NCBI GenBank assembly: GCA_015233115.1
Contig: JADFYJ010000004.1
Span: 1 to 62,830, forward strand
DNA length: 62,830 bases
Reading direction: 5' to 3'
Source of the DNA: Candidatus Omnitrophota bacterium
GTDB lineage: Bacteria; Omnitrophota; Gorgyraeia; Zapsychrales; Zapsychraceae
Each line of letters begins with the position of its first letter. The first letter of the stretch is position 1. The position numbers were made by a program, and so were the translations under genes. This document shows positions 5,185-24,009 of this stretch, piece by piece. The notes under the pieces were generated by a model that was not told the DNA's origin, did not search any database, and was given only the letters and a program-made list of their open reading frames with translations.

Positions 5185-6978
5185 ATGAAAAAAATTATCT
5201 ACTCTATCCTATTCTTATTATTTGTTTCATCCAGTTACGCGGGCGTCCTCAATGTGGCATATAAAGGAGAAGAGATAGATATCAATGTCTATCCCCGCAA
5301 GCTCACCTCAATTATTTTCCCGGAAAAAGTGGTTAAAGTGGTGCGATCGGAAAATATGGCGCATTATGAGATCATGCATGATAAGCCCAATATTTTGACC
5401 ATTGTTCCCTATATTGATAAGCCGGCGGATTGCCGGGTGTATGGGCAAAAAGGGGAGATTTATGTATTAAATTTTCATATTAATGAAAAGGATAGCCAAT
5501 CTAAAGTTTTTATTGAGGATGAAGGCAAGAAAGTGATTGGACAGGATACGGTTATTGATTTTGTGAACAATAATCCGCCGGATATTTTAGTTTCGAATAA
5601 AGCTCGAGAAAAAAAATTACCCACACCGCAAAAGCCAGTTACTGAAAATGATTTGCCTAAAGAGATGGATCAGAAAATTACTTTAAAAGGCGATAATCTA
5701 CCGTTGAAAATTTATTTAAGTACCATCGGGCAAGCCACCGGATATAACGTCATTATGGGTAAAGATGTGGAAGAGGCACGGGCGTCGATCAATGTTACGG
5801 ATATTGAAATTTGGCGTGGACTTAAGTCTTTGCTTTATCCATTGTCCTTTGGCTTTAAGGTTGTGAACAAAGATTTAATTGTCATGTCTAAAGAAACCCG
5901 GGTGTATGAGATCAGTATTCCTGCCATTGAACAGGCGTTTAATAATGTCACGTCGAATGAATCGTTTTCCAGCACGGAAAATTCGTCCAAAGATAATACT
6001 TCCGGACAAACGATTAATGTGGGATCCAAGATCCTGATGGAAAATAAGACCCGGTTATTATCGCTGTGGGATGATTTGGATAAAAATATGCAGACTATTG
6101 TAACGCCGCAAACCGGTTCCTTCTCTATTAATAGATCAACGGGTGTGGTCTTGATTAATGATTTTCCAGGGATATTGGACAAAGCGGGGGCATTTATTGA
6201 TGAATTAAATCGGAATCTAACCCTTCAGCAAGCGTTTGAAATTCAAATTGTGGAAGTAACATTGAAAAATGAATTTGAAAGCGGTGTAGATTGGAACGCT
6301 TTAGCCGGAAATTTGAAAGGTTTGAGCGCTCTGGCCGGTGCCGCAAGTTTCACAGGTGATGGTTTTGCTGGTGGACAATTATTGAAATTAACCGGACTGG
6401 GGCCCAATGATGACAGCGGCACAGGGTCGTCAGGAGTGTCCGCGGTTTTAAAAGCTTTGGAAGATGTGGGCAAGGTTGAAGTGAAATCGCGGCCGCATAT
6501 TACCTCACGGAATATGTCGGGTAGTATTATTCAAGAGGGGAAGACTTTAACCTATATTGCTGAGAATGGGCAAGTCCTTAATGATAATTCGTCAAGCACT
6601 TTGGTCAAAACTAACCAGGTGCATGAAGGTTTGACCATGTTGATTTTTCCTAAGATTGCGGGAAAAGGAAGAGAAACATATTTAAATATTGCGGCCACCT
6701 TAACGACTGTTGACAGTATTGTCAATATCAAAACCGGGAATATTGTCCTGCAAACACCGAAGGTTAGTTCGAAAAGTATCACGACCAGCGTCGGAGTTAC
6801 GGAAAATCAAAGTTTAATTTTGGGCGGATTGATTTCAACGACAGTCAGTGATTCTCGTCAAGGAGTGCCTGTGCTTGGGGCTATTCCGGTCATCAAGTAT
6901 CTGTTTTCGCATAAAATTCGTCAAAATAACAAAAAAGAATTAGTCATTATAATCACGCCTAAAGAGGTGAATACGTAA
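5185..6978 (+). CDS. Secretin (PilQ/GspD family outer-membrane channel)
   Basis: Signal peptide from ATG 5185 (GAGGGA RBS). The C-terminal secretin core GGLISTTVSDSRQGVPVLGAIPVIKYLFSHK...LVIIITPK is diagnostic. Confidence 0.85.
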   Translation: MKKIIYSILFLLFVSSSYAGVLNVAYKGEEIDINVYPRKLTSIIFPEKVVKVVRSENMAHYEIMHDKPNILTIVPYIDKPADCRVYGQKGEIYVLNFHINEKDSQSKVFIEDEGKKVIGQDTVIDFVNNNPPDILVSNKAREKKLPTPQKPVTENDLPKEMDQKITLKGDNLPLKIYLSTIGQATGYNVIMGKDVEEARASINVTDIEIWRGLKSLLYPLSFGFKVVNKDLIVMSKETRVYEISIPAIEQAFNNVTSNESFSSTENSSKDNTSGQTINVGSKILMENKTRLLSLWDDLDKNMQTIVTPQTGSFSINRSTGVVLINDFPGILDKAGAFIDELNRNLTLQQAFEIQIVEVTLKNEFESGVDWNALAGNLKGLSALAGAASFTGDGFAGGQLLKLTGLGPNDDSGTGSSGVSAVLKALEDVGKVEVKSRPHITSRNMSGSIIQEGKTLTYIAENGQVLNDNSSSTLVKTNQVHEGLTMLIFPKIAGKGRETYLNIAATLTTVDSIVNIKTGNIVLQTPKVSSKSITTSVGVTENQSLILGGLISTTVSDSRQGVPVLGAIPVIKYLFSHKIRQNNKKELVIIITPKEVNT

Positions 6979-8180
6979 TGAAATATTATTTGCTCAATAA
7001 TAAGCTTTATGCTTTTGTCGACAGCGGAATCAAGGCTTTGGATAAGGAAGACGCGGTTGATGAATGGTCAGGGATAACTGGAGAGGTGACTGTCGCGGTC
7101 GTTGATATGGAACCACTCATGGTCAGTGTATCGGATGCTTCACCAGATAAGTTAGACCAAATTTTGGCGCTGGATTTTAGACAGAAATTCGGTAATGAAT
7201 ATTTATTGCAGACCGAAACCCTCAAAAAAAATTCTTACCAGGTCATGGGGATACATCAAGACCGAGTGAGGGAAATTTACGCTTTATTTGGTAATCGGCC
7301 GGGAATTACGATTGTTCCCTACAGCCTTTTGTTGCGGTCAGTGTTAATTAAGAGCGGACTGCTGCAGGATCAAAAACCTATTCTATTTATTGATCATTTT
7401 GAAGATGAAGTATTCTTTACGGCTTTTAATGGGACGATCATCGGCAAAACCAGAAAGATGAATTCGTTAAGCGAGCAAGTTTTTATTCTGCAGGAAATCA
7501 AACGTAATGAAAAAAATTATCAAAAATTATGGGCCAAGAGTTTGATTCCGGGCAGTGACGAGTTTATATATGTCAGTAATTGGAAAATTTTGACAGATTA
7601 TTTAGCGGAGTACGCGGACATCGAAAAAGAGCAGGTGGTGTTTTTGGATATAGGGTGTCCGGCGCTGGAGGGGTTAAAGCTGGAGAATTTAAATATAAAT
7701 TATTGCCCTCCTGAATTTTTAATTAAAAAAGTCAGGATGAAGGAAGTAAAAAATTGGCTGTCATGGTCAGCGTCTGCCGGAATTGTCGTTTTGCTAGCCG
7801 TAGGGATCAATATATTTTTAGGGATGATGGTGTCTCGTTCACAAAGTCAATGTTCAGATTTAATCGCCGCTAAAACAGTGTTGTTAAAACAATTAAAAAA
7901 TCTGAATAAAGGGACGTATAGAAATTACTTAAAAAATAGCCGGGGGAATTGGGAATCCATATATTTTGAATTTTTAAATATTATGCCCGATGGATACCAA
8001 GTGAATGTCATGGAAATGAATCGTACAGGCTCAAACATTGATTTTGACGTTTTTTTAAATTTGAACAACAAAGACGCGTTTTACGAAGATATTAAACCAT
8101 CATCCAAGTTTAAACATCTACAAGTGCAGGACGTCATGCTGGAGCATCAGCCGGGGAAAAGGATAAAAGTGCGGCTTTGA
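6978..8180 (+). CDS. Pilus assembly membrane protein (PilM/PilN-like architecture: cytoplasmic domain, single TM, periplasmic tail)
   Basis: Start overlaps the secretin stop. One TM (WLSWSASAGIVVLLAVGINIFLGMMV) at about aa 260. Called from position and architecture only. Confidence 0.35.
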   Translation: MKYYLLNNKLYAFVDSGIKALDKEDAVDEWSGITGEVTVAVVDMEPLMVSVSDASPDKLDQILALDFRQKFGNEYLLQTETLKKNSYQVMGIHQDRVREIYALFGNRPGITIVPYSLLLRSVLIKSGLLQDQKPILFIDHFEDEVFFTAFNGTIIGKTRKMNSLSEQVFILQEIKRNEKNYQKLWAKSLIPGSDEFIYVSNWKILTDYLAEYADIEKEQVVFLDIGCPALEGLKLENLNINYCPPEFLIKKVRMKEVKNWLSWSASAGIVVLLAVGINIFLGMMVSRSQSQCSDLIAAKTVLLKQLKNLNKGTYRNYLKNSRGNWESIYFEFLNIMPDGYQVNVMEMNRTGSNIDFDVFLNLNNKDAFYEDIKPSSKFKHLQVQDVMLEHQPGKRIKVRL

Positions 8181-8273
8181 AAACGTTCGCGGAGAAGGGA
8201 TAAGCGAAATGTAAGATAATTGCACCTCTCCCCTCGGGGGAGAGGGAGGGGTGAGGGGTAAAAAAGGGGAAAT

Positions 8274-8783
8274 ATGAAAAAAATAATTACGGTGATCGTA
8301 GGTGTAGTTGTGCTATGGACGGGGTTTGACAGTTGCAGGGTTTGGGGGAAGTTGGGTGATATTCGAAAGCAGGAACAAGTTTTGAAACAGGAGAATTCTC
8401 AAATTACGCAGACTATTCAGCGGATGTCGCGATATCCTTCGCGGAAAGCTTATTCGCTCAATCAAGCGTTTAAGCGGCTGGTTGATCATAGAAATATCAT
8501 CGCTATGTATAGCGAAGGAGAAATAGAACTGAGCATTCCTCATGTTAAAGACAAGCAAGATATCCACGCGTTTTCTGTTGAATCCGAATTAGCGGGAGTC
8601 AGCCGGATTCCGTTTGAATTGAATTTTTCTGGAATTAAAAATGAAGTGGATTTAGGGTTCGCTTTGCAAACGATATCAAGTCTGGAAAAAACTTTAGATG
8701 TCAAAATTCAAAGCGTTAAACAATCGATTAAAAACGGCCTGACCGTTGAGGGGTCGATTTACGGTATCGACGAGGAGAGTTAA
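8274..8783 (+). CDS. Bitopic membrane protein, PilO-like by position
   Basis: N-terminal TM then a coiled-coil segment (KQEQVLKQENSQITQTIQ). Lies between the assembly gene and the ATPase. Confidence 0.3.
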   Translation: MKKIITVIVGVVVLWTGFDSCRVWGKLGDIRKQEQVLKQENSQITQTIQRMSRYPSRKAYSLNQAFKRLVDHRNIIAMYSEGEIELSIPHVKDKQDIHAFSVESELAGVSRIPFELNFSGIKNEVDLGFALQTISSLEKTLDVKIQSVKQSIKNGLTVEGSIYGIDEES

Positions 8784-8784
8784 T

Positions 8785-9366
8785 ATGAAGAAAACCGGAT
8801 TTTTGATCAGCTTTTGGGTGTTTGTCTGCGCAGTGGCATGGGGTCAGGCCGCGCCAGACCATCTTAAATTTTCCCCTGAGCCGGAGGCAAACCAGGCTAA
8901 TAAACCAGCCATGGAGTCGTTAATGACCAAGCCTGCTCCGGCTCAGGATTCTAACTTGGGGGAAGATGACGCTGACGGAGAAACGACTGCACTTATACAG
9001 ATGGAGCAAAATCGGAGGCGGCAAATTAAATTGTTGAACATGGAATTAGAACAATTAAAACTTCAACTGGAAAGGGAAAAAACTCTAAAGGAAATGGGTG
9101 AGTTGCGTAAAGAAAACCGGACAATGATTCAGGATCCGTTGAAATCTGGTGATCCGGAAATGCCGGAAATGAAAGCCGTTTATATTGCGCATGCGAAACA
9201 TGATTTTGAGGCGATTGTTACGATCAACGGTCGCAATTATTCAGTGAAACCGGGTGACTGTCCTTACGCGGGGGTGTGCGTGCGGGATATAACGATCGAT
9301 CATGTTGCGATCAGACTCAAAGATTCAGCTAATCTTACATTAAACGTTGATCATCTGGTGAATTAA
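8785..9366 (+). CDS. Secreted coiled-coil protein, PilP-like by position
   Basis: ATG 8785 (MKKTGFLISFWVFVCAVAWGQA signal peptide), low-complexity linker, coiled coil, C-terminal beta-rich domain. Confidence 0.3.
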   Translation: MKKTGFLISFWVFVCAVAWGQAAPDHLKFSPEPEANQANKPAMESLMTKPAPAQDSNLGEDDADGETTALIQMEQNRRRQIKLLNMELEQLKLQLEREKTLKEMGELRKENRTMIQDPLKSGDPEMPEMKAVYIAHAKHDFEAIVTINGRNYSVKPGDCPYAGVCVRDITIDHVAIRLKDSANLTLNVDHLVN

Positions 9367-9368
9367 TT

Positions 9369-11006
9369 ATGAATAAAAATAAAATGGGTGACATTCTGGT
9401 TAATCGGCACGACATAAATGCGGAAGAATTGAATTTATGTTTGGATATTCAAAATATTGAGAAAAAGGAAAAAATTGGCGCGATTTTACGGCATTTTAAT
9501 TTTGTGACGGATGATGAAATCGGTGAAGTGATTGCAGAGCAGAGCGGGTGGAAATTTTTTAGAGGAACGTATGCTCCTGATAAAGAGGTGTTAAAAGTTA
9601 TTGATTTAAGCGTGCTGGTGAAACATCAGGTTTTTCCTTTGAAAACGGTCAACGGGCGAAAAACATTTGTGTGCGCTCGGATTGATGATATGGAAATCAC
9701 GGATATTGTCAGTGATAGTTTTCCGTTTGTCGAAGTGGAATTTATGGTAGGGGTAGAAAAAGATGTGTGTTTCGCGTTAGAAAGTTTGATGCAGGAAGAG
9801 CTGAATAAAAAGGTTAAAGAACACGCGGGCCGGATTAATGAACAAAAAAATGTGGATGGTGTGGCGGAATTTTTAGATGAGCTGCTGCATTTAGCTGTGG
9901 TGCATCATGGGACGGATATCCATTTTGAACCTTCGGAAAAAGCCGTGGAAATCAGCCTGCGCGTCGATGGGATAAAATTTTCATTCTGCTGTTTACGGAA
10001 ATATTTTATTTATACGATCGTCAACCGGATTCTAACGTTATGTGAACTCAATACCGGGGAATATTTTAAGATTAAAGATGGAGGTTTCAAATTCAAATAT
10101 TTTGACCGGCAGGTGGATATCCGGGTTTCCATTATTCCATCAATATTCGGACCGTCTATGGTTCTGAGAATTTTGGACCGCGCGAAAGTATCTTATGATC
10201 TCAAGCGGTTGGGATACTCGTTTCACAACTGGAAAAAAATTCAAAATTTAATTTCGCGTCCGTATGGCTTGGTATTGATTACCGGCCCCACCGGAAGCGG
10301 AAAATCTACCACGCTTTACAGTCTGTTGAATCACTTGAAATCACCAGAGAAAAAAATTGTAACAGTAGAAAATCCGGTGGAAATGCCGCAATCCTTAATG
10401 GTGCAGATCCAGGTCAATGAGATTCAAAATTTAAATTTTGCGTCTGCGATCCGGGCGTTTTTGCGACATGATCCAGATGTTATTTTAATCGGAGAGATCC
10501 GGGACGCGGAAACCGCGCAGGAAGCTTTTCGCGCAGCCGAGACGGGGCATCAGGTCTTTTCCACCTTGCATACCAATGATGTTGTCAGTTCAATGCTCAG
10601 GCTCAAAGACTTGGGTGTGGATGTGGTGAATATATCAAATAGTTTAGCCGGGGTGGTCGCGCAGAGGCTTATAAGAAAATTATGCCCGTTTTGTAAACAA
10701 AAAATAAAAATCTTCATGGAAAACGACAATGTCGCGCAAACAAAATATCTGGATGAGGATGTTACTGAGGCATTTGTCCCAGTGGGTTGTCCGAAATGTG
10801 TAAATGGATATTTGGGGCGTACTGTGGTCGCTGAAGTTTTAAGCATGGATGACGAGATTAGAGATTTAATTGAAAAACAAAATCTTAACATGATCCGGCA
10901 ATTGCTTCGCGGTAGAAAAGATCATAAAGATATTTTTGCGGACGCGAAGGCATTGTTTTTAAGCGGTGAAACTTCATTAGATGAACTGATTCGGGTTTTA
11001 GGATAA
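9369..11006 (+). CDS. pilB: Type IV pilus / T2SS assembly ATPase (PilB/GspE family)
   Basis: GspE N-terminal domain pattern. Walker A GPTGSGKSTT, Asp box, Walker B VILIGEIRD, His box TGHQVFSTLHTND. Tetracysteine CPFC...CPKC. Confidence 0.9.
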   Translation: MNKNKMGDILVNRHDINAEELNLCLDIQNIEKKEKIGAILRHFNFVTDDEIGEVIAEQSGWKFFRGTYAPDKEVLKVIDLSVLVKHQVFPLKTVNGRKTFVCARIDDMEITDIVSDSFPFVEVEFMVGVEKDVCFALESLMQEELNKKVKEHAGRINEQKNVDGVAEFLDELLHLAVVHHGTDIHFEPSEKAVEISLRVDGIKFSFCCLRKYFIYTIVNRILTLCELNTGEYFKIKDGGFKFKYFDRQVDIRVSIIPSIFGPSMVLRILDRAKVSYDLKRLGYSFHNWKKIQNLISRPYGLVLITGPTGSGKSTTLYSLLNHLKSPEKKIVTVENPVEMPQSLMVQIQVNEIQNLNFASAIRAFLRHDPDVILIGEIRDAETAQEAFRAAETGHQVFSTLHTNDVVSSMLRLKDLGVDVVNISNSLAGVVAQRLIRKLCPFCKQKIKIFMENDNVAQTKYLDEDVTEAFVPVGCPKCVNGYLGRTVVAEVLSMDDEIRDLIEKQNLNMIRQLLRGRKDHKDIFADAKALFLSGETSLDELIRVLG

Positions 11007-11009
11007 ATC

Positions 11010-12206
11010 ATGTATTGGCAATATGTGGCGTTAAATAATTTCGGGAAGGAAGTAGCCGGTTCATTCCATGGCACTAGGAAGGACGCGCGGGCCCTGATGC
11101 AGGATCAGGGCTGGATCGTTATTAAGCTCTTCCCTGAGTGGGACGTGTTTTGGAAAGAATTGTTTTATCGACAGAAAATTGATCATAAAATCTTAGCGGA
11201 TATGTTGAAAAATCTAGCCGGAATGCTGGAAGTGGGATTATCTATGAATGAAATTTTAGAAAATTTAACCGAAACTACCGGACATAATTCAGTAAGAATG
11301 GCGTTGGCACGAATGCGGAATGATTTAAATAAAGGATATTTATTGTGGGAAGCGATGAAGAGATGCGGCGCGTTTGGGCCTATGGCGATTTCTTGTGTGT
11401 CCGCCGGGGAAGAAAGCGGGAATTTGCCGGAAGTCCTTCGATCATTAGCATCTACATTTGAATTCACGGATGAAGTTAAGAAAAAAATTTGGGGCGCGGT
11501 TGCGTATCCGTTGGGGTTATGTGGGTTGATATCAGCCGCGTCTGTCATTATATCCGTGAAATTAGTCCCGGCTTTGCGGGATTTTTTACCAGCAGCATCC
11601 ATGGACAAGATGTCAGTTAAGTTGTTTTTATGGTACTGCCATTTGGTTCAATACCATTGGTATGTATTCGCTGTTGTTCCGTTAATAGCTGTAATGTTTT
11701 TTTGGTATTGGCACCGGTTTCATGCCGATATTTTTTTTAAATGTTTATATAAAATTCCTGTCTTAGGCCCTCTTGTTAAAGAAATGCAGTTGTCGTTGTA
11801 TTTTTTGAACCTGTATACCTACCAAAAAAGCGGGATCACGATCAAGGATTCCATCGGATACATTCACGCCCACCAAAGCAATTATATCAGCCGGATGTTT
11901 TTAAAGTGCCTTAACGGGATCGACCATGGTTTATGTTTTTGGGAAGCGGTTAAGCAGGAACAAGAAATCCCTAAAGTTGTTTACCAAAATATCCGGCGGG
12001 GAGAAATCCAGGGCAAATATGAGGAGTATTTCCGGCATATTCACGGTTATTTTAAAACCAGAACCGAAGAAGCCACGCGGACGCTGATTCCTATTCTTCA
12101 GCCGGCCTTTATTTTGATAGGAGGTGTGATGATTATGTTTTTAATAGGGACGTTTATCGTGCCGATTTATACGAATTTAAATTCCATGATGAATGGCATG
12201 TTCTAA
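11010..12206 (+). CDS. pilC: Type IV pilus / T2SS platform protein (PilC/GspF family)
   Basis: 398 aa with duplicated GspF-type domains and three TM segments. Immediately follows the ATPase. Confidence 0.85.
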   Translation: MYWQYVALNNFGKEVAGSFHGTRKDARALMQDQGWIVIKLFPEWDVFWKELFYRQKIDHKILADMLKNLAGMLEVGLSMNEILENLTETTGHNSVRMALARMRNDLNKGYLLWEAMKRCGAFGPMAISCVSAGEESGNLPEVLRSLASTFEFTDEVKKKIWGAVAYPLGLCGLISAASVIISVKLVPALRDFLPAASMDKMSVKLFLWYCHLVQYHWYVFAVVPLIAVMFFWYWHRFHADIFFKCLYKIPVLGPLVKEMQLSLYFLNLYTYQKSGITIKDSIGYIHAHQSNYISRMFLKCLNGIDHGLCFWEAVKQEQEIPKVVYQNIRRGEIQGKYEEYFRHIHGYFKTRTEEATRTLIPILQPAFILIGGVMIMFLIGTFIVPIYTNLNSMMNGMF

Positions 12207-12256
12207 TTTTGTATAACCAAAGGCCTTGGGCCTGATTAACAAGAAAGGATAAAGTG

Positions 12257-12697
12257 ATGAAAAAATTAAACAACAAAAGCGGTTTTACGATGGTGGAGTT
12301 GGTGATGGTCATTGTGATCATTGCTGTTTTGGCCAGCGGCGTTATCAGCGCGAACAAAGCTATTGAAAATAGCCGGGTGGTTCAGCAGATTCAAAATATC
12401 AAAGTCGTGCATTCGGCGGCCGTGCAATGGTATGGAGACAAAATGGCTTATTCCGGCATTTCGGTAGATGAATTAAAAAATAACGGATATCTGAAAAATA
12501 ATTTTGATTCAACCAAAGCAAATCAATTCGGCGGAGATCTGACTGTGGCTGTGGATCCGGCTGACCAGGAAAAATATATATTTACGCTGACCAAGGTGTC
12601 GGACAGCGCGCGGACAAAATTGGAAAACGGTTTATCAAATTCAACGGACAATTTTTCTTATGACGACAAAAATCAGACGTGGACAGCCACGTTTTAA
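12257..12697 (+). CDS. Prepilin-type N-terminal cleavage/methylation domain protein (major pilin candidate)
   Basis: MKKLNNKSG|FTMVELVMVIVIIAVLA: Gly-1, Phe+1, Glu+5, hydrophobic helix. Confidence 0.8.
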   Translation: MKKLNNKSGFTMVELVMVIVIIAVLASGVISANKAIENSRVVQQIQNIKVVHSAAVQWYGDKMAYSGISVDELKNNGYLKNNFDSTKANQFGGDLTVAVDPADQEKYIFTLTKVSDSARTKLENGLSNSTDNFSYDDKNQTWTATF

Positions 12698-13145
12698 TCA
12701 AGGTTTCAGCATCGTAGAAATGGCCGTGGTCATGACCGTGATTATGGTGTTGTTAAGTGTCATGTTGAGATCCGTCAACGTGCAAGTGAATGACGCGAAA
12801 GTAAAGCGGACGTTCAAAGAAATGATTTCTATCGCGCAGGCCGTGGTCCGGTTTTATCAGGAAAAAGGGGCATGGCCTGCGGACTTGGAGGAGCTTAAGC
12901 CGGATTTTATCGACGTCAATATCGGGTTAAACCCTTTTCAGGTGCGGTATGTGGTGACCGCTGACGCGGGATTAGTTAAAGTTTCGACAGATTTGCCCAA
13001 AGGAAAAATTCAGGGAAATTTTTGGGGGCCGATGGTCGAAGTGGAAGATGAAGGATCAACAGAAAAAGTTACAATCGCGATCAGGGATAATTTAAACAGC
13101 ACAGACTGGTTAGAGTATGAAAAGAAATATACCTATAAATCATAG
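12660..13145 (+). CDS. Prepilin-type protein (minor pilin)
   Basis: ...RFNQG|FSIVEMAVVMTVIMVLL class III signal. Overlaps the previous pilin gene by 38 nt. Confidence 0.7.
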   Translation: MTTKIRRGQPRFNQGFSIVEMAVVMTVIMVLLSVMLRSVNVQVNDAKVKRTFKEMISIAQAVVRFYQEKGAWPADLEELKPDFIDVNIGLNPFQVRYVVTADAGLVKVSTDLPKGKIQGNFWGPMVEVEDEGSTEKVTIAIRDNLNSTDWLEYEKKYTYKS

Positions 13146-13866
13146 GGGTTATTCCCTGGTGGAAATGTGTGTGGTAATCATTGTCATGGCCATAACTTTA
13201 TCCGCAGTAGTCCCAAATTTGCTTAAAGATATTTATGCCCGGTACGGAGAAGCTGTGGCTATGGATATGGCCGTAATCGAGGGCGCGGCCAGGGCGTATT
13301 ATATCGACAACCGCGCTTGGCCAGCTGATATAGCGGCGTTAAAAGAAAACAAATATTTATCACCAACCTGGAGCGGTCAAAATCCGCTAGGTAAGGATTA
13401 TATTATTACATCAACGCCGGATATGTTGACTGTTCAGTCAGATGTGAAAAAAACGCAAGTGGCTCCATATGCGTCTAGAAAATTACCCCAGGGTGAGGCT
13501 GACGGTTCTGTGGTCAAAAGTTCGATAGCTGTTCCTGGCGGCGCAGGTAATTTGAACAGCTATGACAGCGGCTGGTTTAGCGCATCAGCCAATGTGACAT
13601 ACACCAAAAGTCACAATTTAGGGACAACCAAAGTGCTATCGATTTTGTATTTTTCGGATACATCCGATGGGTCTGGCCGGGTCAATTACGCTGTATGCAC
13701 GCATTTTGACGCGGCTAATGCTGAGAGGGGGACCAACATTGTTGCTTTGACAAATACGGATGTCTCAGTCAGGGCTAATGGGTATTTAGCCGTGACGTTT
13801 GATCGTAACGGCTCAGTTAATCCGTATTCCAATGGATATTTAAGAATCGTGATGGCGGCGCTATAA
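13117..13866 (+). CDS. Large prepilin-type protein (tip/adhesin-like pilin candidate)
   Basis: ...INHRG|YSLVEMCVVIIVMAITL class III signal followed by a domain of about 200 aa. Confidence 0.65.
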   Translation: MKRNIPINHRGYSLVEMCVVIIVMAITLSAVVPNLLKDIYARYGEAVAMDMAVIEGAARAYYIDNRAWPADIAALKENKYLSPTWSGQNPLGKDYIITSTPDMLTVQSDVKKTQVAPYASRKLPQGEADGSVVKSSIAVPGGAGNLNSYDSGWFSASANVTYTKSHNLGTTKVLSILYFSDTSDGSGRVNYAVCTHFDAANAERGTNIVALTNTDVSVRANGYLAVTFDRNGSVNPYSNGYLRIVMAAL

Positions 13867-13882
13867 AAGGGATAAAGGTGGT

Positions 13883-14910: not shown

Positions 14911-14912
14911 TT

Positions 14913-17273: not shown

Positions 17274-17985
17274 TAAACTAAAAAATTGGCATAGCGCCTT
17301 AGTTGTTATGGGATTTGTGTTAGTGATATTTTTATCCTTCAGAGATGAGGTTTTCGCTTCGGATATTACCGGAACAATTATTGCCGAAGAATTGGCACAA
17401 CAGACGGTTATATTGAGTCAGATATTGACCCGCCAAGTGGGTATAGCCACCCAGCTTGACGGATTATTGAAAAGCGTGAAAACGTATTATAACCTTTCTT
17501 TTCATGATGTGACCGAAGAGTTAAAAGCATATCATGAGGCGGCGCATGAAGGTCAGGCTATCTCTTACGCGATGCAGAATTTGGATACAAAATTTAAAGA
17601 AACCTATAAAGGTTATCAGCCACCGGATGATTTTCAGAATGAATATAAAAATTGGGCAGGCGCGACTATGGATACCTTAATCGCGTCTTTAGATTCCGCC
17701 CAAAAACAAAAAGAAGAATTTTCTCATGAGAAAGATTATTACCGGCAATGGCAGAACCGATCGAACAACGCGCAGGGTCAGACGCAAGCTTTGCAAGTGA
17801 CGAATATGATCGCTTTGGAGCTTGCCACGCAGCTGCAAAAACTTCGTCAATTGGTTATGTTGCAAATTCAATCACAAAACGCGTATATGGCCGCGCAAAT
17901 GCAAAAAGATTCAGCTGTTGAAGCGGCGGCAAAAAATTCTATATATCTGCTCAATGACAGTGAAGATCATCGGGGATATAAATAA
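17266..17985 (+). CDS. trbJ: T4SS protein TrbJ (VirB5-like)
   Basis: Signal peptide plus a helical protein of about 210 aa, Q-rich. Positioned between trbE and trbL as in Ti-type trb operons. Confidence 0.6.
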   Translation: MIDKLKNWHSALVVMGFVLVIFLSFRDEVFASDITGTIIAEELAQQTVILSQILTRQVGIATQLDGLLKSVKTYYNLSFHDVTEELKAYHEAAHEGQAISYAMQNLDTKFKETYKGYQPPDDFQNEYKNWAGATMDTLIASLDSAQKQKEEFSHEKDYYRQWQNRSNNAQGQTQALQVTNMIALELATQLQKLRQLVMLQIQSQNAYMAAQMQKDSAVEAAAKNSIYLLNDSEDHRGYK

Positions 17986-18998
17986 TGGACCCAAATGTGG
18001 ATATTTTTAAAGGGATTGAAGATATCGTTGGCACCTATGGCGGGCTGGCAGACCAGCTCGGCGCAGTAGGAACAGGGATTGGTTTAAAAATATTCAGCGT
18101 CTTGGCGTTGTTGAATTTTCTTTGGAGCGGTATTTTGTGGATTTTGCATCGGGAAGATATGGCCGGAATTATGGGGGAACTGATCAAAAAAGTGTTTTTT
18201 ATTTTCTTTTTTTACTGGCTCGTATCGCAATATGAGAGTTGGTTTATTCCGTTAAAAAGTTCTTTTAATTATATTGCCGGGCAAATGGTTCATGCTTCAA
18301 ATGTCAGTGGTGCCATGTCATTAAAACCTGGACGAATTATGGGCAGAGGCATGCAGTTATTTTCATATATTTTTATGAAAGGATCAAATGGCCCCTGGTT
18401 TAACCACACCGCGTTAGCCCTGCTGCTCATTATATTTGGTTGTTTAACATTTTATGTGTTTGTGCGGGTGGGAATAGAGATGATGCTGATCATTATCGGC
18501 GGCAATATTATTTTAGCCGGCGGTACTTTTTTGTTGGGGTTTGCCGGAAATCCATTAACAATCAAATACGCCCAGCAGTATATCAACGCGGCCATTAACC
18601 TGGGAATCAAATTTTTGTTTTTAGTGATCATTGTCAGTTCGGGAGACGGTATCACGGAGCAATGGGTGGCGAGGTTAGAGGCGAGCACCTATCAAACATT
18701 GTTTCGCGATGGAGTATTTATCAGCACAGGGTCTTTGATCTTTTATTTTATGTCTATTCATGTCCCGACTATGGCAGCAAATATGTTGGGGAATGGATTT
18801 GTGATAAAAGGCAATGATTTTGGTTTTAACGCGGCACAAAACACTGTTATTCGAGCACGTGAAGGTGAGCCGCGGATTAAAACAGAAAAAATGATAATTC
18901 GGGAAAATACTCAGACGGAAACAATTAAATGTTATGGGATGGATAAAATAGGATCGGTGAATACTTTGTTTGGAATGAATAAAACAAACGATTTGTGA
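17985..18998 (+). CDS. trbL: T4SS inner-membrane protein TrbL/VirB6
   Basis: 337 aa, polytopic with at least 5 TM segments. Position after trbJ. Confidence 0.7.
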   Translation: MDPNVDIFKGIEDIVGTYGGLADQLGAVGTGIGLKIFSVLALLNFLWSGILWILHREDMAGIMGELIKKVFFIFFFYWLVSQYESWFIPLKSSFNYIAGQMVHASNVSGAMSLKPGRIMGRGMQLFSYIFMKGSNGPWFNHTALALLLIIFGCLTFYVFVRVGIEMMLIIIGGNIILAGGTFLLGFAGNPLTIKYAQQYINAAINLGIKFLFLVIIVSSGDGITEQWVARLEASTYQTLFRDGVFISTGSLIFYFMSIHVPTMAANMLGNGFVIKGNDFGFNAAQNTVIRAREGEPRIKTEKMIIRENTQTETIKCYGMDKIGSVNTLFGMNKTNDL

Positions 18999-19033
18999 TT
19001 TGTCCTTTAATGCGCGCGGTAGGGCGGTTTGCA

Positions 19034-19129
19034 TTTAAACCAAATCATTCGCTCAAACAGCAGCTCCGAAGCGGAGCTGAACTCGCTCGGTGATTCGGTT
19101 TAAACACTAACCTTGTGTTTGGGCACGCG
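19034..19129. repeat. Structured intergenic element: nested hairpin plus a conserved tail, tail repeated at 37955-37992
   Basis: TTTAAACCAAATCA...TGATTCGGTTTAAA encloses CAGCTCCGAAGCGGAGCTG. The tail GATTCGGTTTAAACACTAACCTTGTGTTTGGGCACGCG matches GATTCAGTTTAAACGCTAACCTTTTGTATGGGCGCACG at 37955. Confidence 0.6.
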
Positions 19130-19243
19130 GTTTGAAGATGTACATGAAAAATTGGGAAGTTTTTGGGGTTCAGTTTTTTACTTTGTTACTCGGTTACTCG
19201 GTTACTTTGTCACTTTAAAATAAAATAGATAAAGGATAATATT

Positions 19244-19897
19244 ATGTATCAACAAGTTAAACGTGAATGGTTGGAGCAGTTTGCTGATCCCGTGATCGCG
19301 AAACGTAATTGGCAGATTATAGCTGGTGTTTTGGGTGTGGTCGCGATTGTGCTATCGGTCAGTAATTACACGTTAGTCCATAAAGCGCAGGTGATTCCTT
19401 ATATAGTCGAAGTGGATCATTTAGGCCGGGCCCAGTTTGTAGAAAAGATCCAAGCTTCGAATACGTTTGATGAATCGGTGATCCGCGCGTTTTTGTATCG
19501 TTTTATTGATCAGTCCCGGTCTGTGATTACAGATGATCTGGTCATGAAAAAAAACTTTTCTGAAGTGTATAGTGTCTCGAGTTTGGATGTGCAAAATAAT
19601 TTTTTAAACGCGTATTATAAAGATCATGATCCGTTTAAGGCTGGACAGGAATTTACGACCCAAATTACGCCGTTGACGTTTTTAAAACAGTCAGAAAAGT
19701 CTTTTTTAATGGAGTGGAAAGAAGTTCGCCGGGATTTAGCCGGAAAAATTGTGCGGCAGGAACAATGGCAGGCATTGTTCGAAATAACAATTATTCCTCC
19801 GAAAGATACGCGGGTGTTAGAGGAAAATCCGTTAAACCCGTTAGGCATATTTATTACCCGTTTATCCTGGTCGCAAATTGATAATGGAACAACATAG
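19244..19897 (+). CDS. trbF: T4SS protein TrbF/VirB8
   Basis: 217 aa with an N-terminal TM. REWLEQFADPVIAKRNWQ...VIPYIVEVDHLGRA is the TrbF/VirB8 pattern. Confidence 0.75.
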   Translation: MYQQVKREWLEQFADPVIAKRNWQIIAGVLGVVAIVLSVSNYTLVHKAQVIPYIVEVDHLGRAQFVEKIQASNTFDESVIRAFLYRFIDQSRSVITDDLVMKKNFSEVYSVSSLDVQNNFLNAYYKDHDPFKAGQEFTTQITPLTFLKQSEKSFLMEWKEVRRDLAGKIVRQEQWQALFEITIIPPKDTRVLEENPLNPLGIFITRLSWSQIDNGTT

Positions 19898-19909
19898 TGG
19901 GAGATTGGT

Positions 19910-20797
19910 ATGAACATAATATTTTACTGTATGAGTTTAGTTTTTTTATGCGGAGTGGGGTACGCGGATGTTACGACGGCAGCCGAATCCGGTAACGACG
20001 ACGCTGGATTTGAAGACATCACCCTGCAAACCAAACCGATTAAATTGAAGTTGGATAATTCAGCAACCATTGGGTCTCCTGAAAGCCTTCCAGAGAGCAA
20101 TAGCCGGAGTGAAACGATTGTGACTGCGGATAACATGGTGAAATTTCCTTACGGCTTATCCCAGCCAAAGTTGATCTGCGGAAAAATGCGGGCTTGTATG
20201 ATTGAGCTGGCAGAAGGAGAAGAAATTTTGGACGCGTCACCAGGAGATACGGAACGCTGGACCTATAAGGTTTCATACCAGGTCACCAATGACGCTTCCC
20301 GGCCAGTCATTACAGTAAAACCGTTTTTCGGAAATAATATTGAAACAAACATTGTGATTGTCACCAATAAACGAATTTATGATGTTCAGCTCAAATCGAT
20401 TGACAGCGGTGATTATACGCCGCGCATTGGGTTTTATTACCCTGAACAGAATGCGTCTGTCCTATTGCCCCATAAAGAGCATAAAGACCAAACAGATAGC
20501 TCGTCGATAAAAGTGGAACAAATGAATTTTGATTATCGGCTCATGGGGAATAAAAAATTAGAATGGTTTCCAGTTATGGTGTTTGATGATGGTAAAAAAG
20601 TTTATATTAAAATGAGCGAGCGGGTTAAATATATGGAATTGCCAGTGTTTGTCGGCGTCACCGAAAAAGGGGTTAAAGAAATAGTTAATTACCGTTACCG
20701 GGAACCTTTTATGATTATCGATAAGATTTTTAATGAAGGGATGTTGATTTTAAACAATGACAATCAAAAAATCGTGAAAATATCGCGGAGCAAGTGA
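19910..20797 (+). CDS. trbG: T4SS outer-membrane core protein TrbG/VirB9
   Basis: Signal peptide. VirB9/CagX-type pattern (MIELAEGEEILDASPGDTERW...VITVKP...TNIVIVTNKRIYDVQL). Confidence 0.8.
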   Translation: MNIIFYCMSLVFLCGVGYADVTTAAESGNDDAGFEDITLQTKPIKLKLDNSATIGSPESLPESNSRSETIVTADNMVKFPYGLSQPKLICGKMRACMIELAEGEEILDASPGDTERWTYKVSYQVTNDASRPVITVKPFFGNNIETNIVIVTNKRIYDVQLKSIDSGDYTPRIGFYYPEQNASVLLPHKEHKDQTDSSSIKVEQMNFDYRLMGNKKLEWFPVMVFDDGKKVYIKMSERVKYMELPVFVGVTEKGVKEIVNYRYREPFMIIDKIFNEGMLILNNDNQKIVKISRSK

Positions 20798-20800
20798 AAT

Positions 20801-21994
20801 ATGGATGATTCCAGTCAAAAATCTTCGAAAATTTCTTTCCAGATTTTACCCCGCGGTATCGTGAGTTATGGCAAGTTGCCTTTGATTATTTTTTTTATCG
20901 CGTTTGCGGGGTTGATGTTGTATTTGATCTTTAGCTCTGAACATCAAAAGAAAAGCGGGGGCTTAAAAACGGCAGGAAAGACAGTGTCAGCGAAGAATGT
21001 TGAAGTAAAACAGCTAGATAAACAGAGTTGGTTTAAAGACGCTCAAATCAATAAAAATAAACTCGCGGAAAATTTGCATAAAGACCGCCGCGCAGATAAA
21101 GTGGCGGTGAAAATTTTGTCTGAGCAAGAAATTAAATTGCGTAAAGCTGTGAGGGAAGAAGAGTTTGCGACCAAAGTTAAAATTCAAAAAATGAGAGAAC
21201 AAGCTGTTGCGGATTTTGAGTCCACAACTGCAGCTGCGGCCAAATCGCCCATGACAATAGATATTAAGAAACCACGAGATTTTCAGCCTAGCCAAAAATT
21301 AACCGCAGTTGGGTCTAAAATATTGAATGACGTGAAGGATCAGGTAACGGACAATAGACAAGAAAATTTTTTGAAAGGCAGCGGAGAGATAGGAGAATAT
21401 TTGCCGTATTTAAAACAAAAACCCTTGTCCGAATATGAATTAAAAGCCGGTGCTGTCATACCTATCGCCATGATCACGGGAATAAATTCGGATTTGCCTG
21501 GAGATATTACGGCCTTAGTTACAGAAAATGTATACGACACTGTGACCGGCCAATATTTGTTGATACCTCAAGGCTGTCGCTTGGTTGGGACTTATGACAG
21601 CCAGTTATCCTACGGACAAAATCGGGTTTTGGTCGTCTGGCTCAGACTACAATTTCCGAATGGCTCGACTATTAATTTGGATCGGATGCAAGGCGTGGAT
21701 GTCAGCGGGTATGCAGGTTTAAAAGACAAAGCGAACAATCATTATTTGCGAATTTATGGCAGTGCCTTGTTAATGAGCATGGTGGGAACGTCCTATGCGA
21801 TATTGGAGCCCCGCCGTAAGAACGGGTCGGTTTCTGATGACGCGGCAGGCAAGGTTGGACAACAGTTGGGCGATGTATTCACGCAGCAAACTCAAAAAAA
21901 TTTAGATATCCGTCCGACAGTAGAAATACGGCCAGGAACTAAATCTAAAGTGATGGTGATGAAAGACATGATCCTGGAGCCGTATGAGATATGA
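20801..21994 (+). CDS. trbI: T4SS core protein TrbI/VirB10
   Basis: N-terminal TM, K/E-rich linker, C-terminal TrbI domain (GAVIPIAMITGINSDLPG...VDVSGYAGLKDKANNH). Confidence 0.8.
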   Translation: MDDSSQKSSKISFQILPRGIVSYGKLPLIIFFIAFAGLMLYLIFSSEHQKKSGGLKTAGKTVSAKNVEVKQLDKQSWFKDAQINKNKLAENLHKDRRADKVAVKILSEQEIKLRKAVREEEFATKVKIQKMREQAVADFESTTAAAAKSPMTIDIKKPRDFQPSQKLTAVGSKILNDVKDQVTDNRQENFLKGSGEIGEYLPYLKQKPLSEYELKAGAVIPIAMITGINSDLPGDITALVTENVYDTVTGQYLLIPQGCRLVGTYDSQLSYGQNRVLVVWLRLQFPNGSTINLDRMQGVDVSGYAGLKDKANNHYLRIYGSALLMSMVGTSYAILEPRRKNGSVSDDAAGKVGQQLGDVFTQQTQKNLDIRPTVEIRPGTKSKVMVMKDMILEPYEI

Positions 21995-22965
21995 TCCAGC
22001 ATCAACGCATTAATGAAAAGATTAGTTACGATCTTGGTGAAGAAATCTTTGGAGCGATCCGTGATCCACAAGTCATTGAGATCATGCTGAATGAAGATTC
22101 GCAAGTATGGATTGATACTTATACCGGCATGAGGAAATTTTGTGAATTGTCGCCGGAAAAGGCAAAAAATTTTATCAATACCATTGCCAGCATTAATGAA
22201 ACTGAAGTCAATAAAGATTGTCCTAATTTATCCACAGAGATTCGTTTTAAATTGGAAGACGGGTATCAAGTGTGCCGTTTTCAGGCATTGGTTCCGCCTG
22301 TGGTTTCTTATCCAGTTTTTTCCATCCGTAAACCAGCCCGTAAGGTTATTACTTTACAAAAATATTGTCAGGACCAAGTGATCACGTTGGAACAGTACCA
22401 AGCCATAGTGAAGGCCGTTGAGGCACGTAAGTCAATCTTAGTGGCAGGGTCAACCGGCAGCGGGAAAACTACGCTGTGTAACGCGATTCTTGATCAAATC
22501 GCTCAAACTTTTCCTGAAGACCGTATAGCTATAATCGAAGACACATTAGAGCTGCAATGTAATGTTAAAAATAGAGTTTCATTAAAGACCTCGGATAATC
22601 GTAGTATGGATGATTTGTTGCGGTATTGCATGCGGCTGCGTCCAGACCGAATTATCGTCGGTGAAGTAAGAGGAAAAGAGGCGCATACTTTGATTAAAGC
22701 CTTGAACACCGGACATCCTGGCGGATTATCGACGATCCACGCTAATAACGCCGCGCGGGCATTGATGCGGCTGGAGCAATTGATTTTGGAAGCGAATGTT
22801 GCGCCGGTTCCGGATACGATCGCGGAAGCCATTAATATGGTGGTGAATATTACGCGGTCCAATAAAAATTCTGCGGGTCGATTGGTCAATGAGATTCTGG
22901 AAGTGAAAGCGTTCGATAAAAAAGAAGGGCAGTATGTTTTGGAACCTGTGATAAGGAGCAGATAA
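21991..22965 (+). CDS. trbB: T4SS ATPase TrbB/VirB11
   Basis: Walker A GSTGSGKTT, Asp box IEDTLEL, Walker B RIIVGEVRG, His box TGHPGGLSTIHAN. Confidence 0.85.
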   Translation: MIQHQRINEKISYDLGEEIFGAIRDPQVIEIMLNEDSQVWIDTYTGMRKFCELSPEKAKNFINTIASINETEVNKDCPNLSTEIRFKLEDGYQVCRFQALVPPVVSYPVFSIRKPARKVITLQKYCQDQVITLEQYQAIVKAVEARKSILVAGSTGSGKTTLCNAILDQIAQTFPEDRIAIIEDTLELQCNVKNRVSLKTSDNRSMDDLLRYCMRLRPDRIIVGEVRGKEAHTLIKALNTGHPGGLSTIHANNAARALMRLEQLILEANVAPVPDTIAEAINMVVNITRSNKNSAGRLVNEILEVKAFDKKEGQYVLEPVIRSR

Positions 22966-23486
22966 TGAAAAGAGTTAGCAGAGACATTAAAGGTGTGGAT
23001 GTTGAGGTCATTGAAACTATGATTTATATATTACGCGGGCAGAAGGTCATGCTTGATTCGGATTTAGCAATGTTGTATGGGGTAGAGACCAAAGTTCTTA
23101 TACAATCCGTTAAGAGAAATATCGATAGGTTTCCAGAAGATTTTATGTTTTTGTTGACGGAAAAAGAATTTAAAATCTTGAGGTCACAATTTGTGACCTC
23201 AAGTTGGGGCGGCCGAAGAAATCTACCAGTTGTTTTTACCGAGCAGGGCGTTGCTATGCTCTCCAGTATTTTAAACAGCAAACGCGCTATTCACGTTAAT
23301 ATCTCCATCATGCGGACATTTACCAAAATCCGGCAAATGATGTCAACACACAAAGAGCTGAGGCAAAAGATCGAGGAGTTGGAAAAGAAGTATGACAAAC
23401 AGTTTCACGTTGTGTTTGCGGCCTTAAAAAAGATTTTTGTGCCGGAAGATAAACCTAAACTTAAAATTGGTTTTTCGCAGAAATAA
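22965..23486 (+). CDS. ORF6N domain protein (KilA-N-like DNA-binding), full length
   Basis: VMLDSDLAMLYGVETKVLIQSVKRNIDRFPEDFMFLLT...WGGRRNLPVVFTEQGVAMLSSILNSKRA is the ORF6N signature. C-terminal coiled coil. Confidence 0.8.
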   Translation: MKRVSRDIKGVDVEVIETMIYILRGQKVMLDSDLAMLYGVETKVLIQSVKRNIDRFPEDFMFLLTEKEFKILRSQFVTSSWGGRRNLPVVFTEQGVAMLSSILNSKRAIHVNISIMRTFTKIRQMMSTHKELRQKIEELEKKYDKQFHVVFAALKKIFVPEDKPKLKIGFSQK

Positions 23487-23520
23487 CGTAGTAATCACAA
23501 AAATTAGTGGAAGTTTTATA

Positions 23521-24009
23521 ATGTTCAAAAAATTTTTTTGGTTTACGGTCATTGTGCTGAGTTTGTTCGGTTGGTTAAAATGGAATGGTTATTACGTGAG
23601 TTGTTTGTCTGATAGTTTACCCCCCGGAGTTTATAAGCGGATTTCAAAATTACCTTCCGTCGGAGATTATGCCGCTTTTCAGCTAGACCCCGCGTTAATC
23701 CGCTATGGCCTTAAGCGTGGATATCTTAAACCTCATGTGTTACTCATGAAAAAAATATTTGCCGAGCAGGGAGACGGCATTGAGCGCAAAAATAATCAAA
23801 TTCAGGTCGATGGCCGGGTGATTGATCGCGTTTTGATCGCGCCGCAGGATTCCCAACACCGTTCTCTGGATATTTTTTATCCTAAAAAAATAATTTTAAA
23901 GCCAGGCGAATATTGGATGATGTCGGATTATAATCCGCGCAGTTGGGATTCTAGATATTTTGGGGCCGTGACGATAAAATTTATTTTAAGACCCATTTGG
24001 ATCTGGTGA
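23521..24009 (+). CDS. traF: S26-family conjugative signal peptidase TraF (TrbC-pilin maturation type)
   Basis: ATG 23521 with an N-terminal TM. The SDSLPPGVY and SWDSRYFG motifs are typical of TraF/LepB-like peptidases. Confidence 0.7.
   Translation: MFKKFFWFTVIVLSLFGWLKWNGYYVSCLSDSLPPGVYKRISKLPSVGDYAAFQLDPALIRYGLKRGYLKPHVLLMKKIFAEQGDGIERKNNQIQVDGRVIDRVLIAPQDSQHRSLDIFYPKKIILKPGEYWMMSDYNPRSWDSRYFGAVTIKFILRPIWIW

Follow-up and report, generated by a model that had tools for sequence, protein, structure and literature searches.

We describe here a chromosomal gene array of Omnitrophota in which a type IV filament module runs head-to-tail into a complete Trb-type type IV secretion system (T4SS) that has lost its DNA-processing genes. 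The array lies on a 62,830-nt stretch of DNA (hereafter the window; positions refer to it unless a locus is named) that is part of a 153-kb contig from an Omnitrophota chromosome. It spans approximately positions 5035–24525 and comprises 22 co-directional genes: nine of the filament module, ten of the Trb set, two ORF6N genes and one terminal lipoprotein gene (Table 1). Our preferred reading, held tentatively and at a probability of roughly 0.45, is that the array encodes a conjugation-derived composite docking machine that has become fixed in the chromosome and is no longer self-transmissible. Below, loci of relatives in genomes, metagenome-assembled genomes (MAGs) and metagenome contigs carry L-numbers.

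A second Omnitrophota genome carries the same array

The next-best match of the window TrbE (79% identity, annotated 'Candidatus Omnitrophica') is located in L001, a 22-kb locus of the Omnitrophota isolate nDJH6bin14 (JADFYE010000002.1). Between the secretin and lipoprotein genes, both included, L001 is collinear with the window, and all 21 shared genes are full length; the synteny comparison across related MAGs that a preliminary description of this DNA had proposed was answered by this one other, fully collinear, Omnitrophota MAG. Amino-acid identities of the 21 shared gene products range from 45 to 81% (81% for the secretin). The proportion of synonymous differences (pS) is 0.62–0.93, i.e. 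saturated, and that of nonsynonymous differences (pN) is 0.11–0.33. Since pN lies far below the saturated pS, purifying selection has acted on both modules, as well as on the second ORF6N gene and the lipoprotein gene, ever since the divergence of the two lineages. This comparison supports the view that the array is maintained by selection in two diverged genomes, and it favours a working machine over a decaying integrative and conjugative element (ICE).

Conservation extends into the non-coding DNA: over the ~80 nt located 5′ of the secretin gene, the window and L001 share ~78% identity despite the saturation of synonymous sites. The block carries the hexamers TTGCAT-17-TATACT (5035–5063) and a 17-nt palindrome, ACAATTAAAAAAATTGT (5071–5087), and may act as one promoter/operator for a long operon. 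It is absent from the listing of a generic promoter/terminator scan of the window, which did not exceed shuffled sequences (46 promoter-like sites vs 50 expected). No terminator-like site was predicted at the junction of the two modules in either the window or L001, where the junction is AT-rich and 36–48 nt long depending on the trbC start, and the array is probably transcribed as a single unit.

Two pieces of the window array, the truncated ORF6N gene between trbC and trbD and the insert between trbL and trbF, are absent from the corresponding sites of L001 (where the trbL–trbF gap is 12 nt) and are therefore recent additions in the window's lineage. The truncated ORF6N protein matches PF10543 at 72.8 bits over 60 of the 86 profile positions and is 54% identical to its full-length paralogue. 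The latter is 72% identical in L001 (pN/pS ~0.25) and is probably a regulator. Both ORF6N genes share a perfect palindrome core, GGTCACAAATTGTGACC, in their coding sequence (14524–14550 and 23177–23203), situated where the truncated copy diverges.

The setting of the array is chromosomal and compositionally ameliorated. GC content is flat across the cluster (~0.40–0.43), and in GC content, GC content at third codon positions and codon usage both modules match the rest of the window genes (cosine 0.98). Repeats of host type also lie inside the array. The flanks differ between the window and L001.

Table 1. Features of the array, in window coordinates
Feature	Position	Strand	Basis
Conserved upstream non-coding block	5035–5087	+	promoter-like hexamers and palindrome
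Outer-membrane secretin	5185–6978	+	ORF opens at 5152; likely start MKK at 5185
PilM/GspL-like assembly protein, 400 aa	6978–8180	+	predicted fold
Small bitopic protein	8274–8783	+	N-terminal transmembrane helix, ~145 periplasmic residues (transmembrane scan)
Small bitopic/secreted protein	8785–9366	+	193 aa from M14; L001 orthologue 193 aa (transmembrane scan)
PilB/GspE-type extension ATPase	9369–11006	+	MshEN-like N-terminal domain
PilC/GspF platform protein	11010–12206	+	T2SSF in two stretches, 121 bits
Prepilin 1, 147 aa	12254–12697	+	short leader, G↓FTMVE; N_methyl 29.3 bits
Prepilin 2, 161 aa	12660–13145	+	G↓FSIVE; N_methyl 23.1 bits
Prepilin 3, 249 aa	13117–13866	+	G↓YSLVE; N_methyl 18.3 bits
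Module junction, 84 nt	13867–13950	+	degenerate host intergenic repeat: GATAAAGGTGGT and hairpin
TrbC/VirB2 pilin precursor	13951–14259	+	PF04956, 64.2 bits; signal peptide, two transmembrane helices
Truncated ORF6N paralogue, 95 aa	14305–14592	+	between trbC and trbD
TrbD/VirB3	14599–14910	+	PF05101; NF010395 61.5 bits, above the 60-bit cut-off
TrbE/VirB4 ATPase	14913–17273	+	TrbE NCBIfam models 761–768 bits, full length
TrbJ, VirB5 analogue	17266–17985	+	TIGR02780 82 bits, under the 100.55 cut-off
TrbL/VirB6	17985–18998	+	PF04610 60 bits; TIGR02783 113 bits
trbL–trbF intergenic insert, 245 nt	18999–19243		long hairpin; tail shared with 37955
TrbF/VirB8	19244–19897	+	PF04335, 115 bits
TrbG/VirB9	19910–20797	+	PF03524, 143 bits
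TrbI/VirB10	20801–21994	+	PF03743, 189 bits
TrbB/VirB11 ATPase	21991–22965	+	TIGR02782 356.5 bits, above the 304.55 cut-off
Full-length ORF6N DNA-binding protein (KilA-N-like)	22965–23486	+	PF10543, 123 bits
TraF-type S26 peptidase	23521–24009	+	ORF 23437–24009, likely start 23521; PF10502 54.6 bits, above cut-off
Small lipoprotein, 145 aa	24088–24525	+	lipobox LMGC

Relaxase and coupling protein genes have gone from the slot that holds them in relatives

The Pfam scan of the window covered the large open reading frames (ORFs) between positions 82 and 54518 (≥90 aa, after removal of ORFs nested in or antisense to annotated genes). Among these we found no relaxase, type IV coupling protein (T4CP), lytic transglycosylase (SLT), integrase/recombinase or Rep domain, nor any prepilin peptidase (Peptidase_A24), PilT or third T2SSE ATPase. 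Tblastn searches of the window and the L001 locus with the relaxase and T4CP proteins of L006, L008 and L096 returned no matches. Pfam and tblastn thus agree with the preliminary description, which had listed the coupling protein, relaxase, transglycosylase, integrase, prepilin peptidase and PilT as absent from the window. No direct repeats or element borders were found flanking the array; the window has neither the relaxase, T4CP and integrase nor the replication module and borders of a self-transmissible element. A 569-aa protein encoded downstream in L001 was considered as a T4CP and ruled out, being a polytopic membrane protein.

After L001, the next relatives of the window TrbE (48–54% identity) are encoded on three metagenome contigs, L006, L007 and L008, that share the trbC-D-E-J-L-F-G-I-B order; in a neighbour-joining tree of TrbE, the window and L001 are sister to the clade that they form. 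In L006 trbB is followed by a relaxase (PF03432), a T4CP, a TraF peptidase and a NikA-like gene, with a serine recombinase upstream, and in L008 a T4CP gene stands directly after trbB, the contig ending soon thereafter. The slot between trbB and traF, filled by relaxase and T4CP in L006, is occupied by ORF6N in the window. Since relatives keep these genes in precisely this place, the DNA-processing genes of the window were removed there and are not merely unseen; their loss is real at the level of the locus. In other respects the likeness is close: L006 and L008 have the identical trb order and a TrbE 48–52% identical to that of the window, and L006 has the TraF peptidase at its 3′ end. Both differ from the window in carrying a T4CP (L006 also a relaxase and a serine recombinase) and in lacking the pilus module, the ORF6N gene and the terminal lipoprotein; L007 has no pilus module either.

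The Trb set is complete and of the P type

The preliminary description had called the T4SS one of P/Ti (Trb) type and apparently chromosomal. This assignment holds, with a complete TrbC-D-E-J-L-F-G-I-B set plus a probable TraF. The Pfam families of the core set of P-type mating-pair formation (MPF_T), namely TrbC, VirB8, CagX, TrbI and TrbL, all score above their gathering thresholds. TrbE falls under the strict equivalog cut-offs of the TrbE models, yet these are by far its best matches; CagE_TrbE_VirB is matched as well, and Walker A and B are present. TrbJ is matched solely by TIGR02780. Walker motifs are intact in PilB, TrbE and TrbB alike.

The S26 peptidase appears to be of TraF type and is predicted to mature TrbC. 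Its best NCBIfam model is TraF_Ti (68 bits against a cut-off of 100.25), and its S-L-P and MKK..GD motifs, with the Ser and Lys residues, align with those of the L006 TraF. The lipoprotein encoded at the 3′ end of the array has no family match in Pfam or NCBIfam; it stands at the same position in L001 (58% identity) and is a candidate VirB7/TrbH analogue. A NikA-like relaxosome protein, such as the one encoded after TraF in L006, had also been considered for this 145-aa ORF and was dismissed, as the product is a lipoprotein with no similarity to it.

Content and order of the genes listed in the preliminary description were otherwise borne out by Pfam and NCBIfam, as was the 84-nt gap between the modules (13866 to 13951). 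Two genes that it had counted and left unnamed are the ORF6N genes, and the lipoprotein gene and the upstream block are added here.

The filament module is of the type IVa pilus/type II secretion class

The 400-aa product of the second gene is informative as to the class of filament. Searches against Pfam, NCBIfam and PDB sequences found no match for it, and no credible Pfam family emerged from the 46 members of its family that were scanned; the family amounts to 78 clusters among 1.84 billion representative proteins. AlphaFold2 modelling with a 46-sequence alignment gave a pLDDT of 89 (a model from a 2-sequence alignment, with a pLDDT of 41, was discarded in its favour) and predicts a cytoplasmic actin-like domain, a single transmembrane helix (residues 261–288) and a periplasmic domain. 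Foldseek matched the model to PilM (5EOU, E 1.6e-9) and to the cytoplasmic domain of GspL (4PHT_Y, TM-score 0.64, and 1YF5; range of TM-scores 0.60–0.64). Because of these fold matches, taken together with the single transmembrane helix and the periplasmic domain, the protein is, as modelled, GspL-like, i.e. a PilM–PilN fusion. PilO2 was rejected as an identity for it: PF06864 matched neither the protein nor 45 of its relatives, and hhalign against the PilO2 proteins of L002 and L003 gave a probability of 0.4%.

The secretin matches PF00263 (100.6 bits) and Secretin_N_2 (26.5 bits), its best NCBIfam model being MshL (161 bits; cut-off 250) and that of R64 PilN, TIGR02520, scoring 124 bits (cut-off 287.65). 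PilB matches T2SSE (344 bits) and MshEN (24.2 bits), has the Walker A motif GPTGSGKS, and scores 375 bits with the GspE and 366 bits with the PilB NCBIfam models, both under the equivalog cut-offs. It belongs to a group of ~543-aa proteins, 41–52% identical, whose source-annotated matches are Omnitrophota MAGs. The protein encoded at 8274–8783 has no significant family match (the sole Pfam match, E2F_CC-MB at 23.7 bits, lies under the cut-off) and is conserved in L001, L015 and L097; by position it may correspond to PilO/GspM, just as the next gene product may correspond to PilP/GspC. The prepilin leaders are ~10–15 residues long, with a G↓F or G↓Y cleavage site and Glu5.

In view of the PilM/GspL fold and the short-leader prepilins, we place the module in the type IVa pilus (T4aP)/type II secretion system (T2SS) class, and not among the type IVb (T4b) pili of R64. 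A PilM/GspL-like protein, PilB/GspE, PilC/GspF, a secretin and short-leader prepilins are all present; a full canonical T4aP set would add PilT and PilD, and a T2SS set GspC and the five pseudopilins GspG–K, whereas the window has only three prepilins and neither PilT nor PilD, and the equivalog models score under their cut-offs. The preliminary description had likened the pairing of pilus and T4SS to that of IncI plasmids such as R64. The core order is indeed the same as in the R64-type pilus of the Methylovorus plasmid pMsip01 (L098; NC_012970.1): secretin, large bitopic protein, small protein(s), ATPase, platform protein, pilins. Leader peptides and fold rule out the R64 family: the leaders are short (G↓F/Y...E5), a PilM/GspL fold stands in the place of PilO2, to which no homology was found, and R64-type PilL/TcpQ, shufflon, prepilin peptidase and PilT-like ATPase are all missing from the window module.

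Prepilin 3 has, in addition to a pilin helix that matches GspG (5WDA), an extra C-terminal domain of ~140 aa. In two related loci, L097 (6519–7508) and L016 (3715–4572), the third prepilin carries the phage tail Collar domain PF07484 (78 bits), i.e. a pilin is fused to a domain of phage receptor-binding type, and the C-terminal domain differs between loci. By analogy with PilV (PMC9045228), prepilin 3 is a candidate target-binding tip adhesin.

The pilus family recurs beside conjugation genes

The downstream context of the pilus family could be seen in six loci: the window, L001, L096, L097, L015 and L016. In the window and in L001 (PilB 78% identical) the third prepilin gene is followed by the Trb cluster. 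In L096 (PilB 52%) the next gene encodes a T4CP (PF02534, 67 bits), after which the contig ends. A TraF-like S26 peptidase gene comes next in L097 (PilB 49%), followed by HlyIII and housekeeping genes; in L015 (PilB 47%) an opposite-strand response regulator is followed by a TraF-like peptidase, AIM24 and HlyIII. Only in L016 (PilB 47%), where a GGDEF-EAL protein is encoded next, does no conjugation gene (Trb, T4CP or TraF-like peptidase) adjoin the pilus genes.

The preliminary description had held that independent distribution of the two modules in relatives would make their adjacency accidental. The modules are indeed separable: Trb occurs without the pilus in L006–L008 and L012, and L015, L016 and L097 are pilus loci that lack Trb. 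The conclusion of accident does not follow, since five of the six pilus loci adjoin conjugation genes. A hypothetical ancestral array of pilus, Trb, relaxase, T4CP and TraF, followed by lineage-specific deletions and translocations, fits all six arrangements. More widely, a metagenome scan with the PilB profile returned 80 loci, 79 of them generic PilB/GspE (30–40% identity); L016 was the only family member among them, and trb genes were found in none of the 80.

Shared sample accessions, among other grounds, suggest that the L015 pilus and the L012 Trb cluster lie on one 146-kb contig. No T4CP, relaxase or TraF was found in the 13.9 kb covered at the L012 Trb cluster, and the sole TraF-like gene in the loci seen from this organism is the one at the pilus locus. 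The pairing of a TraF-like S26 peptidase with an HlyIII-family membrane protein, with no trb nearby, is found downstream of two chromosomal pilus modules, in L015 (15084–16984) and in L097 (7508–8672), the HlyIII proteins of the two being 79% identical.

Both L012 and the window also contain a giant ORF. That of the window, at 55050–62828, exceeds 2,593 aa and is open at the window end; its first 2,530 residues have no Pfam domain, and residues 102–386 are 46% identical to the start of the giant ORF in L012 (11638–13920), which lies ~2 kb 3′ of the T4CP-less Trb cluster.

Comparison with known pilus-assisted and coupling protein-free systems

In IncI plasmids (R64, TP114) and PAPI-1, a dedicated type IV pilus is known to work together with a conjugative T4SS (PMC9045228, PMC5297154). 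Conjugative pili of this kind act through the adhesin PilV, which selects target cells in R64 and TP114, to stabilise mating pairs (PMC9045228, PMC5297154). The window shares with the IncI and PAPI-1 systems the presence of dedicated type IV pilus genes beside a conjugation-type T4SS and a last pilin with a variable C-terminal domain. The T4SSs of IncI and PAPI-1 are, however, of the I and G types and keep T4CP and relaxase, whereas that of the window is of the P type and is without both.

The P type does not in itself make the pairing with a pilus unusual, as the preliminary description had supposed. Of four distant TrbE loci from a genome scan, two, a Methylococcales MAG (L002, 1314–7822) and a Gallionellaceae MAG (L003, 709–7361), have an R64-type T4b pilus cluster with TcpQ, PilN-type secretin, PilO2 and ATPase divergently placed beside trb. 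The plasmid pMsip01 (L098, 16797–29801) has the same layout, with PilV shufflon adhesins, and is typed as conjugative, MOBP and MPF_T. We found no discussion of this combination of Trb with an R64-type T4b pilus in the literature searched. These proteobacterial elements resemble the window in that a P-type trb cluster lies directly beside a secretin-containing type IV pilus cluster; they differ in that the two clusters are divergent, the pilus is a true T4b pilus (TcpQ, PilN, PilO2, PilP, PilV shufflon) and the TrbE proteins form a clade apart from the window TrbE in the neighbour-joining tree. What sets the Omnitrophota array apart is accordingly fourfold: the class of the pilus, the arrangement head-to-tail in a single array, residence in a chromosome with ameliorated composition, and the loss of T4CP and relaxase.

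For the last of these, the best functional parallel is the Trw system of Bartonella, a T4SS of conjugative origin that has no coupling protein and serves adhesion (PMC2883598). Trw and the window array are alike in their descent from conjugation, chromosomal location, loss of the coupling protein (in the window, at the level of the locus) and conservation of the remaining genes. Adhesion has been shown for Trw and is proposed here for the window machine. Trw differs in being of VirB/Trw type and collinear with R388, in having no type IV pilus module and in its tandemly amplified pilus-subunit genes, in contrast to the single-copy TrbC and TrbJ of the window.

Omnitrophota have been inferred to be host-dependent, with T4a and Tad pili listed among their symbiosis-related genes, and surveys of the phylum make no mention of conjugation or VirB genes (PMC10066038). 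T2SS/T4SS-like loci, with rcpC and Rotamase_2, have been described upstream of giant Omnitrophota genes (West-Roberts et al. 2023, bioRxiv 10.1101/2023.11.21.568195). Those loci are similar in coming from the same phylum, in having secretin, GspE and GspF-type genes and some T4SS-like subunits, and in the presence of a giant ORF, which the window shares; they differ in that rcpC/Rotamase_2 lie immediately 5′ of the giant gene, the giant ORF of the window being 30 kb from the cluster, and in that no full Trb set is reported in the text consulted.

A proposed composite docking machine and its alternatives

The machine that we propose would work as follows. The pilus, by way of the third prepilin, would find and hold a target cell, and the Trb envelope complex, together with the TraF-matured TrbC pilus, would form a tight junction or channel. 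In the trbB–traF slot an ORF6N DNA-binding protein has taken the place of relaxase and coupling protein, so that the machine most likely now serves contact between cells; it may also perform export or uptake independent of a coupling protein, rather than the transfer of its own DNA. The role of the array may lie in contact, effector delivery or DNA uptake, as the preliminary description had proposed. A bolder version, which we regard as speculative and rather doubtful, is that in host-dependent Omnitrophota a conjugation machine has been turned into an organelle for contact with host or prey, in which a lineage-specific pilus of the PilM/GspL class with an exchangeable tip domain, recruited independently of the proteobacterial T4b pili, captures the partner and a T4CP-less Trb channel carries out a contact-dependent exchange. 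The traffic could be outward, of periplasmic or surface cargo with a conceivable tie to the homologous giant proteins encoded near Trb, or inward, of host DNA.

Several points weigh against the docking machine. Absence of T4CP and relaxase has been established for only 62.8 kb of a 153-kb contig, and RP4 and Ti plasmids keep both far from trb; since the scans cover the window, either gene could act in trans from elsewhere. L096 is a case of a related pilus module that still adjoins a T4CP gene. Synonymous divergence is saturated, so that the strength of selection is only bounded and is not dated relative to the gene loss. The fused form is carried by two genomes only, and we found no effector, substrate or duplicated pilus-subunit genes of the kind seen in Trw.

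The main alternative, which we consider rather unlikely, is that the array still serves DNA conjugation or mobilisation, with T4CP, relaxase and oriT supplied in trans from elsewhere in the genome or from a mobilisable element and the pilus stabilising mating pairs as in IncI and PAPI-1. A complete mating-pair formation set, TrbB and TraF included, is kept under selection; the relatives L006 and L008 are conjugative, as are the proteobacterial elements that combine Trb with a T4b pilus (MOBP/MPF_T in pMsip01); the L096 pilus locus is followed directly by a T4CP gene; and in RP4 and the Ti plasmids tra and trb normally form regions of their own. Against this, T4CP and relaxase have gone from the exact slot where the nearest relatives hold both, integrase, replication gene and element borders are all absent from the window, housekeeping genes that differ between the two genomes make up the flanks, and the host-like composition argues against recent mobility. 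Should the coupling protein nevertheless lie elsewhere in the genome, the array would be an unusual split conjugation system of mainly evolutionary interest.

That the two modules are merely independent neighbours, a separate Trb relic having landed beside a type IV pilus or T2SS-like machine of the usual Omnitrophota kind, seems improbable to us. They do occur apart in relatives, and trb was found in 0 of 80 metagenome PilB/GspE loci, but five of six pilus-family loci have a conjugation gene downstream, a TraF-like peptidase stays with the pilus module even when Trb is elsewhere, and adjacency, short junction and gene order have been kept across two genomes whose synonymous divergence is saturated. 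Less credible by far is that a conjugative element once integrated here and is now decaying, without any function today. The missing relaxase, T4CP and integrase and, inside the array, the truncated ORF6N gene and repeat insertions would suit decay; every core gene, however, retains its full length in the two genomes, where pN is far lower than pS, the ATPase motifs are intact and the catalytic motifs of TraF are conserved. We retain the chromosomally fixed docking machine as our working interpretation.

Recruitment of a type IV pilus to a P-type T4SS has thus happened at least twice, once as an R64-type T4b pilus in Proteobacteria and once as a pilus of the PilM/GspL class in Omnitrophota, the class of the latter pointing to a recruitment independent of the proteobacterial one. 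The array is also a clear and datable example of a conjugation apparatus whose relaxase and coupling protein have gone from an identified slot and which selection has nonetheless maintained in a chromosome. Since Omnitrophota are uncultured and thought to be host-dependent, the locus is a concrete candidate for their cell-contact machinery.

Genomic setting and host repeats

The + strand carries almost every large ORF in the window. Upstream of the array lie a BrnT/BrnA toxin–antitoxin pair (82–577, at the window start), a histidine kinase gene, a gene for a PEP-CTERM protein and a broken second kinase copy. The kinase duplication (756–2034 vs 4241–5026) is evident over 300 nt at 81% and 104 nt at 73% identity; the second copy directly adjoins the secretin promoter region on its 5′ side and, being broken into two frames (4373–4660 and 4685–5026), is probably a pseudogene. 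Downstream are genes for an ammonium transporter, P-II, HydF, ClpB, HSP20, rubrerythrin, ferritin, a phosphate ABC transporter and PhoU, as well as two radical-SAM genes consistent with the hydrogenase maturases HydE/G. A second toxin–antitoxin pair, AbiEii/AbiEi, is located at 46662–48069. No tRNAs were found in the window, and an Rfam scan of it gave no matches.

Just 3′ of the cluster and 5′ of the ammonium transporter gene there is a perfect consensus sigma-70 promoter, TTGACA-17-TATAAT (24576–24604). An 18-bp hairpin with a T-run (24656–24695) lies inside the annotated start of the transporter ORF; this may be a putative leader/attenuator, in which case the true amt start would be further downstream.

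The preliminary description had also pointed to host-type repeats inside the cluster, and this was upheld in part. The word GATAAAGGTGGT is present at 13871 as described and at two other sites (30807 and 32399), exactly three copies against a chance expectation of 0.37, each at a stop codon or within a few bases of one; the tail motif shared between 19092 and 37955 is a 33-nt match at 88% identity. The junction sequence at 13871–13910 is a degenerate relative of an intergenic family resembling repetitive extragenic palindromic (REP) elements, which consists of the hairpin GGGCGATC-N4-GATCGCCC followed by GTAACAAAAT. Copies of this family are located at 29439, 32414, 38259, 40052, 44369 and 49726, with inverted copies at 29480, 38324 and 49554. 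Finally, two tandem copies of a 50-nt unit, 98% identical, lie at 49608–49707, 5′ of the phosphate-binding protein gene, and a third copy, at 66% identity, is found at 29536–29585.

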